Shown here: one piece after another, positions 5,366-36,359 of the stretch | How positions within the stretch are numbered: position 1 is the first letter of the stretch | Layout of the letters: each line of letters begins with the position of its first letter | Sequence record: PX655591.1 | Reading direction: 5' to 3' (one strand) | Length of the DNA stretch: 38,819 bases | From: a phage | Notes under the pieces: model-generated | What the model was told of the DNA's origin: nothing | What the model saw: the letters and a program-made list of their open reading frames with translations, nothing else | Databases searched by the model: none | Translations under genes and position numbers: made by a program

Positions 5366-5388
5366 CCTAAACTATCACTATAGGATTA
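5366..5388 (+). promoter_or_regulatory. Phage RNAP promoter (CCTAAACTATCACTATAGGATTA)
   Basis: Conserved 23-mer; position matches T7 phi1.1 promoters near the primary replication origin. Confidence 0.85.
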
Positions 5389-5423
5389 GACTCAAGGTCA
5401 TGACTCAAAGTCGTGGCCTTCAT
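5386..5423 (+). promoter_or_regulatory. RNase III-type processing hairpin (TAGACTCAAGGTCAT...GTGGCCTTCAT)
   Basis: Stem AAGGUCA/UGGCCUU with one G-U pair; same flanks recur at 12381 and 35433 with different loops. Confidence 0.6.
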
Positions 5424-5461
5424 GATTAACCCTAAATAAACACTACTGGAGATTTAACCAT

Positions 5462-7911: not shown

Positions 7912-8066
7912 CTGAGGTTGAGAAGAAATACATCGTGGAGCTTGAGGGTCGCGTTCAGTCCTTCGAGGTTCCGGTGTACGCAAAGTCTCTTGAAGAGGCT
8001 ACCCTGAAGTCCCAAGAGTATGAGGACGCTGGGTTTGTGGTAGGACGGATTCGTCCTGAGACCTAA
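7908..8066 (+). CDS. Host RNA polymerase inhibitor (gene 2-like), 52 aa
   Basis: [15 protein letters not shown]...GFVVGRIRP matches recalled T7 Gp2 (HSFEVPIYAETLDEA...GFEVTRVRP). Confidence 0.8.
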
Positions 8067-8084
8067 ACTATCACTGTAGGACAG
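8062..8084 (+). promoter_or_regulatory. Phage RNAP promoter variant (CCTAAACTATCACTGTAGGACAG)
   Basis: Conserved 23-mer with A to G at -3; upstream of SSB gene. Confidence 0.6.
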
Positions 8085-8124
8085 ACGTCCAGTTCGTAAC
8101 TTTTAAATTAGGAGATTTACACCA

Positions 8125-8823
8125 ATGGCTAAAGAGCAACTGAAGACTTTCACCACTCCGGTAGCTGGTATCGTTGAGCCTTACGCATGGCTAAACAAAG
8201 CAGACACCAAGTTCAACGAGCGTGGTGAACACAAAGTCAACCTGACATTCGACCTGAGCAACCCGAAGGTCCGTAAGATGATTGATGTCTTGCAGAAGAT
8301 TCACGACGATGCGTATGCGAAAGCACTCGCAGACCACGAGAAGAACCCACCTCAGGTTCAGCGTGGCAAGAAGCCTATTGAACCACGAGAAGGCGACATG
8401 CCGTGGATTGAGAATGGTGATGGTACTGTTACCCTGAAGTTTAAATGCTTTGCGTCTTACCTTAAAGACGGCAAGTCCGAGCCTATCGTATTACGGTTCT
8501 ACGACACTGATGCCAAACTAATCCGTGACGTCCCGAATATTGGCGCTGGGTCTAAGCTGAAGGTCAAGTTTAAAGTCCTGCCGTTCAAGTGGAACGCTGC
8601 GACTGGTGCAAGCGTTAAGCTTCAGCTTGAGTCCTGCCTTCTGGTAGAACTGAAGGAGTGGAAAGGTGATGGTGCTGGTGGAGATGGTGGTTGGGGTGAT
8701 GATGAAGACCTCGGTACTGGCTACAAAGCGTCAACCGATGGCGACTTCGGGTCTGACGACTTCGGTGACGATGGTTCCGAAGGTTGTGACGACTCTGGCT
8801 CTGGTGGCGATTACGACTTCTAA
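8125..8823 (+). CDS. Single-stranded DNA-binding protein (gene 2.5-like), 232 aa
   Basis: Recalled identity to T7 gp2.5 (ASVKLQLES...); acidic Gly/Asp-rich C-terminal tail ending DYDF. Confidence 0.95.
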   Translation: MAKEQLKTFTTPVAGIVEPYAWLNKADTKFNERGEHKVNLTFDLSNPKVRKMIDVLQKIHDDAYAKALADHEKNPPQVQRGKKPIEPREGDMPWIENGDGTVTLKFKCFASYLKDGKSEPIVLRFYDTDAKLIRDVPNIGAGSKLKVKFKVLPFKWNAATGASVKLQLESCLLVELKEWKGDGAGGDGGWGDDEDLGTGYKASTDGDFGSDDFGDDGSEGCDDSGSGGDYDF

Positions 8824-9278
8824 TGGCCCAATGGTCTGCAAAACGGGGGCACTCTGTGGGTGCCTACCGCTCTGGACTTGAAGCCAAGAACCAGCAGTGG
8901 CTGGAACAGAACGGCGTCAAAGCGGAGTACGAAAGCCATTATATCAACTATGTGATTCCGGCTTCCGACCACAAGTATACACCAGACTTTATCCTTCCCA
9001 ACGGCATCATCGTGGAGACCAAAGGTATCTTCGATAGTGATGACCGTAAGAAGCACCTTCTGGTACGAGAGCAGCACCCAGAGTTAGACATCCGGTTCGT
9101 GTTCTCAAGTTCCCGCTCCAAGCTATACAAAGGGTCTCCTACCACGTATGGCGCATGGTGCGAAAAGAACGGCTATAAGTATGCCGATAAATTCATACCG
9201 GTTGAGTGGCTTCGAGAGGCGACTGTACGTCTGCCTTCAGGTATCCTCATCCCCAAGAAGAAAGGAGTTAAGTTATGA
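8823..9278 (+). CDS. Endonuclease I, Holliday junction resolvase (gene 3-like), 151 aa
   Basis: YTPDF...VETKG...DDRKKHLLVREQHPELDIRFVFSS matches recalled T7 endonuclease I. Confidence 0.95.
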   Translation: MAQWSAKRGHSVGAYRSGLEAKNQQWLEQNGVKAEYESHYINYVIPASDHKYTPDFILPNGIIVETKGIFDSDDRKKHLLVREQHPELDIRFVFSSSRSKLYKGSPTTYGAWCEKNGYKYADKFIPVEWLREATVRLPSGILIPKKKGVKL

Positions 9279-9745
9279 CTCAGAAATATAGACTTAAGGC
9301 TAATTTTAATGGGTGGCCAGCAGGTACTATCGTTACAAAATGTACGAAAGACCCGTACCCAACGCCGGGAGCGACTCTGGTAGAAACCTCCCAGCCTGGC
9401 ATCTACAAACACGGAGCGGAAGGTTATGACACTCAGCCTGACGGTATGTGGGGAGCGTGGGTTGTAACTAATCAGCTTGAGGAAATTGTAGAGGATAAAC
9501 CTCAAGTCCTTCCAGCTTCGAGCGTACCGCCTGTGACTGTGAAGCGTGAAGTCCTGACCATCGACAAGATTGGTGTGGGCCAGACGTTCATCGTACATGG
9601 CCAGCCTGACGAAGTGTACGTGAAGATTAGCAACTCTCACGTCTTCAACCATAAGCGTCTCCAGATGCACACCACGGACGCACAACGCTTCACCCAGCAC
9701 CTGAATCTGGTGGTCGTAGAATTGGTGGTGTACAATGGTAAGTAA
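9275..9745 (+). CDS. Hypothetical protein, 156 aa, inserted between endonuclease I and lysozyme
   Basis: RBS AAAGGAG; ATGA overlap with gene 3 stop; no recognisable motif. Confidence 0.6.
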   Translation: MTQKYRLKANFNGWPAGTIVTKCTKDPYPTPGATLVETSQPGIYKHGAEGYDTQPDGMWGAWVVTNQLEEIVEDKPQVLPASSVPPVTVKREVLTIDKIGVGQTFIVHGQPDEVYVKISNSHVFNHKRLQMHTTDAQRFTQHLNLVVVELVVYNGK

Positions 9746-10193
9746 GGTACAGTTCAACCCACGGTCCCGGACTGACGCTATCTTCGTCCACTGTTCGGCT
9801 ACCAAGCCAGAGATGGACATAGGGGTAGAGACCATCCGTATGTGGCACAAGCAGCAAGGCTGGCTGGATGTAGGCTACCACTTTATCATCAAGCGCGATG
9901 GCACTGTGGAAGAGGGGCGCCCGGTCAATGTCGTAGGGTCACATGTTAAGGACTGGAACTCACGGTCTGTAGGCGTCTGCCTTGTAGGTGGAATCAACGC
10001 TAAGGGTCAGTTTGAAGCTAACTTCACTCCAGCCCAGATGAACTCCCTGCGCAACAAGCTGGCTGACCTGAAGTCCCTGTATCCTCAGGCAGAAATCAAA
10101 GCACATCATGACGTAGCACCAAAGGCGTGTCCAAGTTTCGACTTACAGCGCTGGATGTCTACCAACGAACTGGTCACTTCCGACCACGGTTAA
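9735..10193 (+). CDS. N-acetylmuramoyl-L-alanine amidase / T7 lysozyme (gene 3.5-like), 152 aa
   Basis: TDAIFVHCSATKP...GWLDVGYHFIIKRDGTVEEGR...AHHDVAPKACPSFDL...NELVTSD matches recalled T7 lysozyme. Confidence 0.95.
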   Translation: MVSKVQFNPRSRTDAIFVHCSATKPEMDIGVETIRMWHKQQGWLDVGYHFIIKRDGTVEEGRPVNVVGSHVKDWNSRSVGVCLVGGINAKGQFEANFTPAQMNSLRNKLADLKSLYPQAEIKAHHDVAPKACPSFDLQRWMSTNELVTSDHG

Positions 10194-10216
10194 TAAACTC
10201 TAAAGGAGAACACTCA

Positions 10217-10432
10217 ATGATTAAACTTATCGAATTTCTTGGTCGTCTGGTGGTGCGTGGTTATCGTCGTGCTGCGGTTATGGAACGAAAGGTAGCAGAG
10301 AAGACTGCTGAAGGTGCGGCTGATGCTGCTGCTCTGAGTGACAAGCTGACCATCGCGTCACTGGAAGCAGGCATGAAGGCACGTCAAGCTGACACCAAAG
10401 CTGACCAGTTGGCCCAGTTCTTCAAAGCCTAA
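10217..10432 (+). CDS. Hypothetical protein, 71 aa, N-terminal hydrophobic segment plus Ala-rich helical region
   Basis: RBS AAAGGAGAA; in-frame part of track ORF 10127-10432; product unknown. Confidence 0.55.
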   Translation: MIKLIEFLGRLVVRGYRRAAVMERKVAEKTAEGAADAAALSDKLTIASLEAGMKARQADTKADQLAQFFKA

Positions 10433-10450
10433 ACTATCACCTTAGGGATG
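10428..10450 (+). promoter_or_regulatory. Degenerate phage promoter-like 23-mer (CCTAAACTATCACCTTAGGGATG)
   Basis: Shares 5' half and GGGA start region with consensus but has CT for TA at -4/-3; function uncertain. Confidence 0.35.
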
Positions 10451-10497
10451 GGACCATGAGTCCTGTCCCTTTGTTCGCATTTATGATTAAGGAGTGA

Positions 10498-12201
<1,704 letters not shown>

Positions 12202-12441: not shown

Positions 12442-14454
12442 ATGGACTTAAGTAACATATATGGGTCTGACATCGAGACCAACGGTCTCCTTGATACAGT
12501 CTCCCAGTTTCACTGTGGGGTCCTGATTAACGCCGAGTCGAATGAGACCCTTAAGTATGGGGTAGCTCCGATGGTTGGTATCGTCGGTGGCTTCAAAGAG
12601 TATGTGCGTAAAGTGGAAGAGATTGCCGCATCGCCTGATGGTATGCTGGTATTCCACAACGGTATCAACTATGACGTCCCAGCTATTGACAAACTGAAAC
12701 GTCTGTACTTTGGGAAACGTTTTAACTTCCCGAAACACAAGATGATTGATACCTTGGTGCTGGGCCGCTTGATGTATCCAAACATTAAGTTCTCAGACAT
12801 GGGGGCGGTGAAAGCTGGACGTCTTCCACCTAATATGATGGGACGCCAGTCTCTTGAGGCTTGGGGCTATCGTCTCGGTGAGATGAAGGGCGAGTACAAA
12901 CACGATTACGTTGCCAAGTGCAAGGCCGAAGGTATCGAATATAAGGCTGGGGACGAATGGTTGTTCCCGTCTCAGGAGATGCTGGACTATAACGTTCAAG
13001 ACGTTGTGGTCACACTGGCGTTGTTCAAGAAGTTCCTGACTGACAAGTATTACTTCCAGTCTGAAAAGTTCGCTTTCGAGCAGATTTATGCGTTGCGTCT
13101 GGAACATGATGCTGCGTGGACCTGTGCGAAGATGGAACGTAACGGCTATCCGATGAACACAGAGATGGTCGAAGGCTTATATCGTGAACTCACCATCAAA
13201 CGTGCGGAGTTACTGGACAAGCTGCGCTCTACTTTCGGTAGCTGGTATGCACCGAAGGGAGGCAAGGAGTTCTTCAGACATCCACGGACAGGTAAGGATC
13301 TTCCGAAGTATCCGCGAGTCGTGTACCCTAAGGTCGGTGGCATCTTTAAGAAGCCGAAGAACAAAGCCCAACGCTTAGGTCTTGAACCTTGTGAACTCGA
13401 TACGCGAGACACAATGGAAGGAGCACCATTCACTCCAATCACTTACGTTGAGTTTAATCCGGGAAGCGGCGACCACTTAGCGAAAGTCCTGATGGAGCGT
13501 GGCTGGGAGCCTGTGGACTTCACTGACACAGGGAAACCTGTAGTCGATGACGAGACGTTAGAACACGTTAAGTTACCAGACGCAGAGGCTCAGGCTTGCG
13601 TAGAGCTTGTCCGTGAGTATCTGGTGGTCCAGAAGCGCATCGGTCAGGCTGCTGAAGGTAAGAACGCATGGTTGAAACTTGTAGGTCCAGACGGACGTAT
13701 GCACGGTTCAATCAACACATGTGGTGCAGTGACCGGACGTGCGACCCATAGCTCACCAAACATGGCTCAGGTCCCGGCTAACGGTGCTCCATATGGTGAG
13801 ACTTGCCGTGGTGCTTTCGGTGCAGCGTGGAACAAGAAGGATGGTAAGCCAGACCCTTGGATTCAAGTAGGTGTGGATGCTTCAGGTCTTGAGCTTCGTT
13901 GTCTGGGGAACCGAGCTGCTCCGTTTGATGGTGGTGCATATGCGAAGACTGTAGTCGAAGGTGACATCCACTGGGCAAACGCAGTCAACGCTGGGTTAGC
14001 ACCTAACGTCCCACGCGATAAGTCGAGCCACGACCATGATGCTTTCCGTAACAACGCTAAGACGTTCATCTATGCGTTCCTGTATGGTGCAGGGGCCGCT
14101 AAGATTGGACTGATAGTCGGAGGTGGTAAGAAGGAAGGTTCAGCTCTCATGAAGAAATTCATTGAGGGTACACCAGCCATCAAGGACCTCAGGGAAGCTG
14201 TGAGTAATACGTTAATCTCAGACTCTAAGTGGGTAGATGGTGAGAACATCGTGAAGTGGAAACGTCGCTGGCTGAAAGGTCTGGACGGTCGACGCATTCA
14301 CATCCGGTCTCCACACTCAGCACTTAACGCCTTACTTCAGGGGGATGGTGCGGTAGTCTGTAAGCACTGGATTGTTGAGGTAGAGCGTATGCTGGAAGCC
14401 GAAGGATACGTCCACGGCTGGGATGGAGACTTTGCGTACATGGCATGGGTGCAT
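12442..14454 (+). CDS. DNA polymerase (gene 5-like) exon 1, 671 codons, ends ...FAYMAWVH
   Basis: Recalled identity to T7 DNAP including thioredoxin-binding loop KVGGIFKKPKNKAQR; ORF ends exactly before the motif C Asp codon. Confidence 0.95.
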
Positions 14455-15052
14455 TAACATCATGGTGCACATTAAATCTGGTGAACTCGGTGAACTCCTA
14501 ATGGGACAATACCGAGCCAAGCCATAGGGAGGATGTATGAGAGGCAAGAAGTTAATTCTTGAGGCCACTGAGACTGGCTGCATAATCCCTACGTCACATA
14601 AATTGAATCAGGATGGATACTTCCGAAAGAGGACTAACGGTGTCCTTGAGATGTATCATAGAACTGTATGGATTAAAGCTAATGGTCCAATACCTGACGG
14701 TTTCGAAGTAGACCACAAGTGTCGTAATAGAGCTTGTTGCAACGTCGAACATCTACAAGTATTAGACCGGGACTCACACTTAGTCAAGACCAACAAAGAG
14801 CGATACGCTGCTAGGAAGCTAGAAGCACGAGACTACTGGGTAGAGACTGGGTGTACTGGAACGAAGTTAGCCGAAGTGTTCAATGTGTCGTTCTCAGCCG
14901 CCTGTGGGTGGATTAGAGAGTGGAAGGCGTAGAGACTATCCGAAAGGAGTAGGGCCGTGGGTGAGATTCCCACGTAACCCGAAGCGCCAGACAGTCACCT
15001 CAAAGACTGATGATATAGTCCGACACTTCCAGTAATGGGAGAATACAGAAAG
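14455..15052 (+). mobile_element. Group I intron (about 598 nt) in the DNA polymerase gene, carrying an HNH endonuclease ORF
   Basis: Exon 1 ends in U that can pair with G of intron GUGCAC (14465-14470); AGACUAU (14933-14939) pairs with AUAGUC (15015-15020) as P7; G at 15052; downstream exon restores DNAP C-terminus in frame. Confidence 0.8.
14537..14932 (+). CDS. Intron-encoded HNH homing endonuclease, 131 aa
   Basis: HNH motif GPIPDGFEVDHKCRNRACCNVEHLQV; RBS GGGAGGA; ORF stops 1 nt before the P7 core element. Confidence 0.85.
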   Translation: MRGKKLILEATETGCIIPTSHKLNQDGYFRKRTNGVLEMYHRTVWIKANGPIPDGFEVDHKCRNRACCNVEHLQVLDRDSHLVKTNKERYAARKLEARDYWVETGCTGTKLAEVFNVSFSAACGWIREWKA

Positions 15053-15208
15053 GATGAGTTACAGATTGCTTGTCGTACTCAAGAAATAGCAGAACGTACA
15101 GTAGAAATTGCTCAACTTGCTATGCGTAAGGTGGGCGAGTTCTATAACTTTAAATGTGTCCTTGATACCGAAGGTAAGATTGGACCAACGTGGAAGGAGT
15201 GTCACTAA
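15053..15208 (+). CDS. DNA polymerase exon 2, 51 codons plus stop (DELQIACRT...GPTWKECH)
   Basis: Matches recalled T7 DNAP C-terminus DEIQVGCRT...GPNWAICH; no start codon or RBS of its own at the junction. Confidence 0.85.
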   Translation, partial: DELQIACRTQEIAERTVEIAQLAMRKVGEFYNFKCVLDTEGKIGPTWKECH

Positions 15209-28263: not shown

Positions 28264-28713
28264 ATGAAGAACGGGACAGCCAGTGAGAGACTGGCAGAAC
28301 TGTCAGTAGCTGAAGAGTCTGGCTGTATCCGATTCACAGGCCACTTAGACGGAGAAGGATATGGAAGGATAATGGTAGCTAGGGTTAAGTATATGGCACA
28401 TCGTCTCTCCTACTCCCTAAATAATGGGCCAATACCAGATGGCTATGTTGTTAGGCATAAATGTGATAATCCATCATGCATAAATCCTGAACACCTTGAA
28501 GTAGGAACGCAGGCTGACAACATTGCAGATAAGGTTTCCAGAGGCCGACAGGCAAGAGGGAGTGGAGCAGGCAGAGCTATACTGACAGAGGAATCTGTTA
28601 GGGAGATACTCTCCAGTCCATTAAAAGTATCTGAGCTTTCCACATTATACGGGGTAAGCGTCGTTTCCATACGAAATATATTGAGGAGAAAGACATGGCA
28701 ACACGTGGTGTAA
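28264..28713 (+). CDS. Free-standing HNH homing endonuclease with C-terminal helix-turn-helix-like tail, 149 aa
   Basis: GPIPDGYVVRHKCDNPSCINPEHLEV HNH motif; paralogous to intron ORF (shared ..GPIPDG..V.HKC.N..C.N.EHL); inserted between genes 15 and 16. Confidence 0.85.
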   Translation: MKNGTASERLAELSVAEESGCIRFTGHLDGEGYGRIMVARVKYMAHRLSYSLNNGPIPDGYVVRHKCDNPSCINPEHLEVGTQADNIADKVSRGRQARGSGAGRAILTEESVREILSSPLKVSELSTLYGVSVVSIRNILRRKTWQHVV

Positions 28714-35428: not shown

Positions 35429-35432
35429 GCGT

Positions 35433-35468
35433 TAGACTCAAGGTCATTACTATATGTAGTGGCCTTTA
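35433..35468 (+). promoter_or_regulatory. RNase III-type processing hairpin (TAGACTCAAGGTCATTACTATATGTAGTGGCCTTTAT)
   Basis: Third copy of the conserved hairpin; position matches T7 R18.5. Confidence 0.6.
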
Positions 35469-35529
35469 TGGTTAACACTAACCAGTGGAGGAGACTCTAC
35501 GTGAAATCTGATAAACCGGGAGGGCAACT

Positions 35530-35973
35530 ATGCTCGAATTTTTAAAGAGAGCGGCTCCGTGGTTACTTGCAGCAGTGATGTTTGCTGGTGGCTACCACAC
35601 CGCTAACAATAAGTGGGAGGCTAAGGTCAATGAAGAATACACCTCGAACCTTAAGGCATCGGAGGATACAAGGCTTGCTGTCCAAGCTGAAGTCAACAAA
35701 GTGTCCAAACGGTTTCAGGACGAAATATCCTCGCTGGAAGGCAGCACTGATAGGATTATTGCTGACCTTCAGTCTGACAATAAGCGGTTGCGCATCCGAG
35801 TCAAACCAACGAGTGGAACCACGCAAAGTGACGGTCGATGCGTCATTGATGGTTACGCCGAACTTGACGAACGAGATGTTAAACGTCTTATCGCCATCGG
35901 ACTGAAAGGGGACAAATGGATTAAGGCACTTCAAGACACTGTGAGAGCCTTACAGCAAGATAAGGAGAAATAA
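35530..35973 (+). CDS. Rz-like i-spanin (gene 18.5-like), 147 aa
   Basis: MLEFL...EGSTDRIIADLQSDNKRLRIRVK...ALQDT matches recalled T7 gp18.5. Confidence 0.9.
   Translation: MLEFLKRAAPWLLAAVMFAGGYHTANNKWEAKVNEEYTSNLKASEDTRLAVQAEVNKVSKRFQDEISSLEGSTDRIIADLQSDNKRLRIRVKPTSGTTQSDGRCVIDGYAELDERDVKRLIAIGLKGDKWIKALQDTVRALQQDKEK
35630..35905 (+). CDS. Rz1-like o-spanin lipoprotein (gene 18.7-like) embedded in the +1 frame of gene 18.5, 91 aa
   Basis: PRWKAALIGLLLTFSLTISGCASES lipobox and LMVTPNLTNEMLNV match recalled T7 gp18.7; start taken at ATG 35630. Confidence 0.8.
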   Translation: MKNTPRTLRHRRIQGLLSKLKSTKCPNGFRTKYPRWKAALIGLLLTFSLTISGCASESNQRVEPRKVTVDASLMVTPNLTNEMLNVLSPSD

Positions 35974-36359
35974 TGCTAACCGACTTTACGTACTCAGATG
36001 GGAAGTTGTTCAGGAAGGGACGCGAAGTCGGCTCAATGGACAACCACGGGTATCTACGGACTACGGTCAACTACCGTAAGTATCTCGTACACCGTCTAAT
36101 CTACAAGCTACACAACCCTGAGTTCGACCTTGAGTCAGACCTCGTGATTGACCACATCAATCGCGACCGAACAGACAACAGGATTGAAAATCTTCGGGCT
36201 GTGACTAAGGCTGAAAACAACAGGAACAGGGACCTACCGAGAGGCGTGTCTTATTGCAAACAGACCGGGAAGTGGAAGGCTATCCAACCTCGCTGGCTCG
36301 GTCGATTTGATACTGAACAGGAGGCCATAGATGCAGTTAGCGCCGCAAGAGAGGAATGA
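35973..36359 (+). CDS. Free-standing HNH endonuclease with AP2-like DNA-binding domain, 128 aa
   Basis: [31 protein letters not shown] motif; [30 protein letters not shown]2-like; inserted between 18.5 and 19. Confidence 0.8.

Follow-up and report, generated by a model that had tools for sequence, protein, structure and literature searches.

Gene 3.2 of K1F-like phages encodes a predicted two-barrel protein with a conserved C-terminal module and exchangeable N-terminal modules

In phage T7 the lysozyme gene 3.5 directly follows the endonuclease I gene 3 (10258–10707 and 10707–11162, respectively), as an earlier note on the DNA studied here had stated. In the 38,819-nucleotide (nt) stretch of sequence record PX655591.1 (hereafter the window, meaning the whole stretch analysed), which is an almost complete Kayfunavirus (K1F-like) genome, the open reading frame (ORF) listing and the sequence itself bear out a 471-nt ORF of 156 amino acids (aa) between these two genes. 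What is this gene, and what might its product do for the phage? The ORF was found to be gene 3.2 of the K1F-like phages, and its product, gp3.2, is predicted to consist of two SH3-like β-barrels joined by a Pro-rich linker. The nearly invariant C-terminal barrel and the exchangeable N-terminal barrel are tentatively read here as the two contact modules of a putative cytoplasmic adaptor protein.

Identity and spread of the gp3.2 family

Gene 3.2, 9275–9745, plus strand: ATG start; product of 156 aa, 17.4 kDa, isoelectric point (pI) 7.0, soluble; called 3.2 in K1F and 3.01 in CR44b.

Across genes 3 to 3.5 the closest record is that of Citrobacter phage CR44b (93.7% nucleotide identity), and the window protein is 92% identical to CR44b gp3.01 and 76% identical to K1F gp3.2. 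It matched PHROG 16385 over its full length (E 2.8e-96; residues 1–156 against profile positions 1–157 of 157), whereas residues 87–156 also matched PHROG 15211, a 74-aa family that represents the stand-alone gp3.2 of Cronobacter phage Dev2 and Citrobacter phages SH3 and SH4. This 74-aa form has been given as gp3.2 without a function (PMC4925675). The earlier note had taken the gene to be undescribed; this did not hold, as the same gene is already annotated in more than 200 K1F-like genomes, under the name "hypothetical protein". Full-length homology, the position between genes 3 and 3.5, the overlaps with both neighbours and the two-module layout are all shared with K1F gp3.2 and CR44b gp3.01. 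Nothing essential differs from these proteins, and the window gene is therefore a new allele of a known family. Taken jointly, this identity and the predicted two-barrel architecture described below are held with high confidence.

Searches for homologues returned 255 proteins at E ≤ 1e-3 (90% clustering), nearly all from contigs of 39–41 kb, and a profile search through all 1.84 billion representative proteins returned only 18 clusters. The C-terminal half was found in nearly all K1F-like phages and a few neighbouring lineages. GenBank holds it in 221 phage records, with every match at the gene 3/3.5 locus. Gene 3.2 directly follows endonuclease I, with a 4-nt overlap, in every lineage whose context was examined, and the same position and overlaps recur in diverged members (loci L006, L033, L051 and L052) and in 23 IMG/VR loci. 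Several 39–40 kb Kayfunavirus-like genomes bear Gram-positive host names (OR786095.1, "Staphylococcus phage MBBL139", and "Enterococcus" records); these are probably mislabelled or contaminated. One protein of 1872 aa (P0134) contains 12 stretches that match the linker part of the profile (positions 59–96, E 1e-10), which is probably a low-complexity Pro/Ser/Val repeat.

Predicted architecture of gp3.2

Three parts of gp3.2 stand out in the family alignment. Residues 1 to about 72 are variable, a Pro-rich linker follows, and the C-terminal remainder is nearly invariant; these parts correspond to the following features of the window.

9275–9490, plus strand: N-module of "type A", residues 1–72, predicted SH3-like β-barrel, exchangeable cassette.
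9491–9547, plus strand: Pro-rich linker, residues 73–91, EDKPQVLPASSVPPVTVKR (alignment; AlphaFold2 (AF2) predicted local distance difference test (pLDDT) below 56; entropy 0.24).
9548–9742, plus strand: C-module, residues 92–156, predicted conserved small β-barrel, equivalent to PHROG 15211.
9617–9691, plus strand: invariant polar patch of the C-module, in the β3-β4-β5 hairpins, candidate functional surface.

AlphaFold models predict two SH3-like β-barrels, with 5–6 strands that superpose on SH3, KOW or Tudor domains. In the first model the C-terminal domain did not take shape because the alignment held no variation there; with the most diverged members of the family added, it was modelled as a second small barrel with a mean pLDDT of 83 and a core of 92–94. 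The structural neighbours of this barrel are FeoA, the ribosomal L2 barrel, EF-P/KOW and Tudor domains, all at Z ≤ 4.9, and, in BFVD, uncharacterised phage proteins of 70–85 aa. The likeness of gp3.2 to eukaryotic SH3, KOW and Tudor domains, FeoA and the ribosomal L2 barrel is one of fold only, as seen in predicted models, and does not extend to a sequence relationship. The linker is conserved in sequence and variable in length among alleles, the 163-aa forms carrying 7 additional residues (LTGVQTT).

Thirteen residues of the C-module are invariant across all clades (Y115, S119, N120, S121, H122, F124, Q130, M131, H132, T133, T134, R138 and F139), and N125 is nearly so. In the window protein they fall within the motif VYVKISNSHVFN....QMHTT...RF at residues 114–139, which was invariant in three family alignments, and the patch motif SNSH.FN....QMHTT...RF is kept even in the PSTCR2-like clade, at about 32% identity. 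The protein as a whole is hydrophilic and neutral, the C-module alone having a pI of 7.2.

Selection on the two halves of gp3.2

Estimates of omega (NG86) were 0.10 for the C-module, compared with 0.14 for gene 3 and 0.12 for gene 3.5, and 0.22–0.31 for the N-module, so that both halves are under purifying selection. The C-terminal half is close to genus-core and is constrained like the neighbouring endonuclease and lysozyme. Synonymous divergence (dS) in gene 3.2 was 0.5–0.9, and the conservation of the C-module therefore lies at the protein level; an overlapping DNA or RNA element as its cause was ruled out on the same grounds. The possibility that the ORF is untranslated or a remnant, which the earlier note had kept in view, is contradicted by the purifying selection on both halves.

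Parsimony counts over 22 type A genes gave a similar picture for the C-module (omega 0.107, no site above 1). For the N-module they gave an omega of 0.54, in which 16 of the 72 sites exceed 1 (maximum 2.6), every one at a loop position, although no site was significant for positive selection with 22 sequences and parsimony counts. The variability of the N-module is located at loop positions 9–12, 24–34, 43, 48–52 and 64–67, over an invariant scaffold of Gly, Trp and Pro residues. The note had remarked that accessory genes at such positions are often host-interaction or anti-defence factors. The N-terminal half, exchangeable and fast-evolving, has a pattern familiar from genes of host interaction; the near-genus-core C-terminal half lacks the sporadic profile typical of anti-defence genes.

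Exchange of N-terminal modules

The same C-module was found joined to type A (the window and K1F), type B (Pipis), type D (PRF-SP4), type E (CR8) and rarer modules. A tandem A+B form of 226–227 aa also exists (P0121/P0094), and in the SH4/Dev2-type phages the C-module stands alone as an N-less protein of 74 aa. Type A occurs in 56 GenBank phage records, mostly of Escherichia phages, type B in 27 and type E in 4, whereas 20 of the 21 records with type D are of Salmonella phages. The remaining C-module records are N-less or carry other modules, and about half of the records have no recognisable N-module. Logan/ENA assemblies contain more than 100 type A alleles, and a scan of JGI metagenomes for further ones yielded only 6 loci. 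At least four N-module types are mutually unrelated and unrelated to the C-module (hhalign probability ≤14%), and on these values an origin of the N-modules as diverged duplicates of the C-barrel or of each other was rejected.

The borders of the exchange could be placed by comparison with genomes that are 95–100% identical to the window through gene 3 and again from 9498 onwards. Within 9275–9497 the identity of these genomes falls to about 30% where another module type is present, or to 44–80% where type A has diverged. Sharp borders at 9275 and about 9498 mark the predicted N-barrel as a cassette that, judging from these alignments, is swapped by recombination. Providencia phage PSTCR2 encodes a diverged gp3.2 after endonuclease I, and a second gene, separate and further downstream, begins there with the module that another family member (P0152) carries fused to the C-module. 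Three correlated changes in the first C-barrel hairpin (IPVGYAF compared with IGVGQTF) are common to every N-less allele, so that these alleles look like one old lineage.

Searches for a known function

The earlier note had recognised no catalytic or binding motif in the protein, and the profile searches agree. At E ≤ 10 no Pfam family was matched, the SH3 and SH3b families SH3_1, SH3_3 and SH3_5 included; the same search gave no match to the HNH and His-Me finger families PF13392 or PF01844. No NCBIfam family was matched, PADLOC gave no defence matches, and both PHROG matches are of "unknown function". Neither the single protein nor profiles of its two halves matched any PDB sequence, and no PHROG of known function was matched by the alternative N-modules. 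Sensitive profile searches and structure prediction, which had been proposed as checks, thus yielded two predicted SH3-like barrels and no homologue of known function.

Two specific enzyme assignments for the C-module were considered and rejected. The N-less 74-aa forms have no cysteine at all, which excludes a papain-like Cys peptidase, and reading "HTT" as part of a 2H-phosphoesterase fails on the presence of only one HxT motif and on the predicted small-barrel fold. In the open-access literature, gp3.2 appears as gene names with no functional data, and no description of a modular N-cassette/conserved C-barrel organisation was found there. Nor did the motif occur in the supplements of the two published accessory-gene screens that were searched.

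Expression signals and the gene 3/3.5 junction

The genes and signals surrounding gene 3.2 are as follows.

8823–9278, plus strand: gene 3, endonuclease I, 151 aa, 64% identical to T7 gp3.
9735–10193, plus strand: gene 3.5, lysozyme/amidase, 152 aa, 67.6% identical to T7 gp3.5.
9262–9267, plus strand: Shine-Dalgarno sequence AAGGAG, 7 nt before the ATG of gene 3.2.
8057–8081, plus strand: phage RNA polymerase promoter that opens the class II transcription unit, upstream of gene 2.5; it belongs to a repeat present in 12 copies, with the consensus CTAAACTATCACTATAGGA.

The ATG of gene 3.2 (9275–9277) overlaps the TGA stop of gene 3 in the sequence ATGA (9275–9278), and together with the AAGGAG at 9262–9267 this confirms the good ribosome-binding site and the coupling to gene 3 that the note had described. 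All 23 IMG/VR loci retain AGAAAGGAGyTAAGnnATGA as the start junction. At the other end, the last 11 nt of gene 3.2 overlap the start of gene 3.5 at 9735, and the same 11-nt overlap is present in K1F, L051 and L052. Promoters at 8057–8081 and 10423–10447 bracket the unit 2.5-3-3.2-3.5-3.7, and since no copy of the promoter repeat lies inside 8082–10422, gene 3.2 belongs to a single class II transcription unit. No plus-strand terminator was found within gene 3.2, and an Rfam search of 8700–10500 matched no family. The layout of these signals shows gene 3.2 as a Kayfunavirus class II gene that shares its transcription unit with genes 2.5, 3 and 3.5 and is coupled in translation to the gene on either side; this agrees with the expression alongside the DNA-metabolism genes that the note had expected. 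An antisense ORF of 225 aa (9173–9850) was dismissed as a chance ORF because it is not conserved in 21 relatives.

A survey of relatives showed gene 3.2 to be near-universal in K1F-like phages and absent from T7, T3-like, Przondovirus and gh-1-like phages. Genes 3 and 3.5 together span about 465 nt less in these four groups (distant blastn, 1301 phage records). The word "inserted", which the note had used of the gene, is correct as a contrast with T7; it describes only that contrast, as the gene may have been gained in the K1F lineage or lost elsewhere. The junction was found occupied by other genes as well. An HNH endonuclease is present there in Yersinia phages phiA1122 and vB_Yep_15, and in Salmonella phage PRF-SP4 a 149-aa HNH protein (PF13392, E 3.1e-14; L003 1763–2212) is encoded between gp3.2 and gp3.5. 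HNH homing endonucleases have thus entered the gene 3/3.5 junction of T7-like phages repeatedly. These genes resemble gene 3.2 in their position and lineage-specific presence, whereas gp3.2 itself carries neither an HNH nor another nuclease motif, and its predicted fold is unrelated to that of their products.

In Escherichia phage ZG49 (KX669227.5) gene 3.2 is absent and an HNH-like remnant stands in its place. The same record contains a chimeric ORF (lysozyme N terminus with endonuclease I C terminus) and a duplicated segment at the gene 3/3.5 junction, and its arrangement is either a real rearrangement or an assembly error; the odd duplication means that the record may be unreliable. In Morganella phage MP2 (genus Minipunavirus) the 74-aa gp20 (PHROG 6570; L030 11039–11263) lies between endonuclease I and endolysin. 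Its genome slot and size equal those of the N-less gp3.2, but the SNSH...QMHTT patch is absent from it, and profile comparison did not support homology to the C-module (hhalign probability 6%). A 74-aa MP2 protein (A0A192YBZ7), not confirmed as gp20, is among the structural neighbours of the C-barrel in BFVD (TM 0.56–0.59). MP2 gp20 is a positional and possibly a structural analogue of the C-module.

Two annotations at this locus were set aside. Endonuclease I has been annotated as 72 aa in Dev2 (PMC4925675) and likewise in the SH4 record, but in SH4 (L004 1040–1492) a GTG start at 1040 gives the full 150 aa, and the 72-aa form in SH4-type phages is, from the reading frame, probably a mis-called start. 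The note "nonfunctional ... due to mutation" attached to Shigella phage ESh23 belongs to an UNVERIFIED record annotated on the wrong strand and was disregarded.

Proposed role of gp3.2 and its alternatives

The reading we favour, at a probability of about 0.45, is that gp3.2 would be a non-enzymatic binding or adaptor protein of the cytoplasm that serves during the DNA-metabolism (class II) period. It is favoured because of the predicted fold class, the lack of an enzyme signature, the evolution of one half as core and the other as cassette, and the dispensability of the gene in T7 and relatives. The C-barrel would dock through its invariant polar patch onto a highly conserved partner, for which the candidates are a conserved phage replication or recombination protein and an Enterobacterales-wide host machine (RNA polymerase, ribosome or nucleic acid); RNA polymerase, the ribosome and nucleic acids are the usual docking partners of KOW, Tudor and SH3-like barrels. 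The N-barrel would add a second, lineage-specific contact by way of hypervariable loops on a fixed scaffold, and both contacts would be made in the cytoplasm during the class II period. Such a function would be accessory rather than essential, because T7, T3, many relatives and the ZG49 record lack the gene.

Several points weigh against an adaptor. A predicted SH3-like barrel would equally fit nucleic-acid binding, peptidoglycan binding or a small enzyme, and the fold matches of both predicted barrels are weak and generic (Z ≤ 6.1). With its many His, Asn, Ser and Thr residues, the invariant patch might serve in catalysis or in metal binding and not as an interface. The contribution of the N-module may be small, since many alleles lack it, and the C-modules of these N-less alleles differ at three correlated positions. 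The cassette pattern itself could be a by-product of homing-endonuclease-driven recombination at the junction and not of selection on binding specificity, which is conceivable because HNH genes sit at the junction in PRF-SP4 and phiA1122.

A special case of the adaptor reading, along the lines of the note, makes gp3.2 an anti-defence or host-takeover inhibitor, in which the N-barrel would neutralise a strain-variable immunity component or serve as a decoy and the C-barrel would be the common effector or stabiliser. The gene is lineage-specific and accessory relative to T7, its N-modules are swapped as cassettes among near-identical genomes, the several unrelated types show some host-genus bias (type D in Salmonella, 20 of 21; type A mostly in Escherichia), and loop sites of the N-module evolve at or above the synonymous rate (omega up to 2.6). 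These points make such an inhibitor a reasonable hypothesis, but we consider it unlikely: no likeness to known defence or anti-defence families was found in Pfam, PHROG, NCBIfam or PADLOC, the two screens searched do not list the protein in their supplementary files, no site is significant for positive selection, about half of the records have no recognisable N-module, and the gene is a middle and not an early one. Furthermore, nearly the whole genus carries the C-module and constraint on it is strong, which sets it apart from most anti-defence genes, as these are typically sporadic. The protein could instead contact nucleic acid and help endonuclease I in junction resolution, host DNA breakdown or concatemer processing. 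In all clades examined gene 3.2 directly follows the endonuclease I gene and overlaps it by 4 nt, including those with further genes between it and the lysozyme gene (PRF-SP4 and PSTCR2), and it lies in the DNA-metabolism transcription unit. Adjacency is weak evidence, however, because T7-like gene order is conserved in general; the window protein is neutral and not basic (pI 7.0; C-module 7.2), and T7 endonuclease I works without such a partner, the gene being absent from T7, T3 and Przondovirus; such a helper is rather improbable.

The invariant patch also bears on whether gp3.2 is a small enzyme or a metal- or ligand-binding protein with His122, His132 and the Asn, Ser and Thr residues as its active site. 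That the invariant residues are almost all polar (S119, N120, S121, H122, Q130, H132, T133, T134 and R138) and are retained at about 32% identity is what an active site would predict, yet a 65-residue barrel is small for an enzyme, the fold matches are all weak, no profile library or PDB sequence was matched and the cysteine-free N-less forms exclude the papain-like peptidase, which together make this very improbable. Translational coupling to the amidase gene through the 11-nt overlap suggests a partner of gp3.5, namely an SH3b-like peptidoglycan-binding domain supplied as a separate polypeptide. As no SH3b family was matched in Pfam even at E ≤ 10, T7-type amidases act without a binding domain, most relatives lack gene 3.2, and HNH or other genes may stand between it and the gene for the amidase, we give this little credence. 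Finally, the gene could be functionless or selfish filler, a decaying remnant held by its position between two essential genes, since one Kayfunavirus record (ZG49) lacks it and in-frame deletion variants exist (P0124 and P0146). Purifying selection on both halves while synonymous sites are free, together with the presence of the C-module and its 13 invariant residues in 221 records and diverged lineages, makes filler barely credible, and ZG49, with its odd duplication, may be an unreliable witness.

The adaptor reading can be extended to a "plug-and-play" intracellular targeting protein, in which a conserved SH3-like effector or anchor barrel would be retargeted by swaps of unrelated specificity barrels at a recombination hot spot. 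We regard this extension as speculative and doubtful. If it were true, gp3.2 would be a cytoplasmic counterpart of the exchange of receptor-binding domains in tail fibres, and the swaps would allow K1F-like phages to keep pace with host factors that differ among strains, for example immunity proteins. These phages are widely isolated for therapy against encapsulated and multidrug-resistant Enterobacterales, and gene 3.2 is one of the few genus-wide genes that set them apart from T7. Should the C-barrel bind a conserved host or phage machine, the best-understood phage family would gain a further host-takeover or replication-accessory mechanism. Possibly new is the picture of the gp3.2 family as one conserved SH3-like barrel with unrelated N-terminal barrels exchanged in front of it. 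For now gp3.2 is one conserved hypothetical protein among many, and the sharply bounded exchange of N-modules provides natural chimeras ready for testing each module.

Other features of the window

Gene 5 (DNA polymerase) is split in the window (12442–15208), with a 671-aa ORF (12442–14457) and a 57-aa ORF (15035–15208) matching T7 gp5 and a 131-aa ORF similar to T7 gp7.7 (14537–14932) between the two pieces. The split is probably an intervening sequence with a homing-endonuclease-like gene, because gene 5 of K1F is annotated as joined from two pieces. Two further ORFs of the homing-endonuclease type were seen, a gp7.7-like ORF of 149 aa between genes 15 and 16 (28264–28713) and a gp3.8-like HNH ORF of 128 aa between genes 18.5 and 19 (35973–36359). 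At 822–1331 an Ocr-like gene 0.3 product of 169 aa is encoded, 94 residues of which align to T7 Ocr (55% identity), with an extra segment besides. At a blastp threshold of E ≤ 1e-3, no counterparts were found in the window of T7 genes 0.4–0.7 (the kinase included), 1.1, 1.2, 1.4, 1.5, 1.8, 4.5, 4.7, 5.3, 5.9, 7, 7.3 and 19.5; the related phage JSS1 carries a 0.7-like kinase (PMC12345140).

The 12 copies of the phage promoter are distributed across 2295–38208. A 50-nt repeat follows promoter-like sequences at 5386–5435 and 35432–35481, the two copies being 84% identical. Close to the left end, at 102–277, short direct-repeat arrays with units such as AACCATAAGTCACAACC and ACTATAGGTAGAGGCTATTG resemble the arrays beside the terminal repeat of T7-like genomes.

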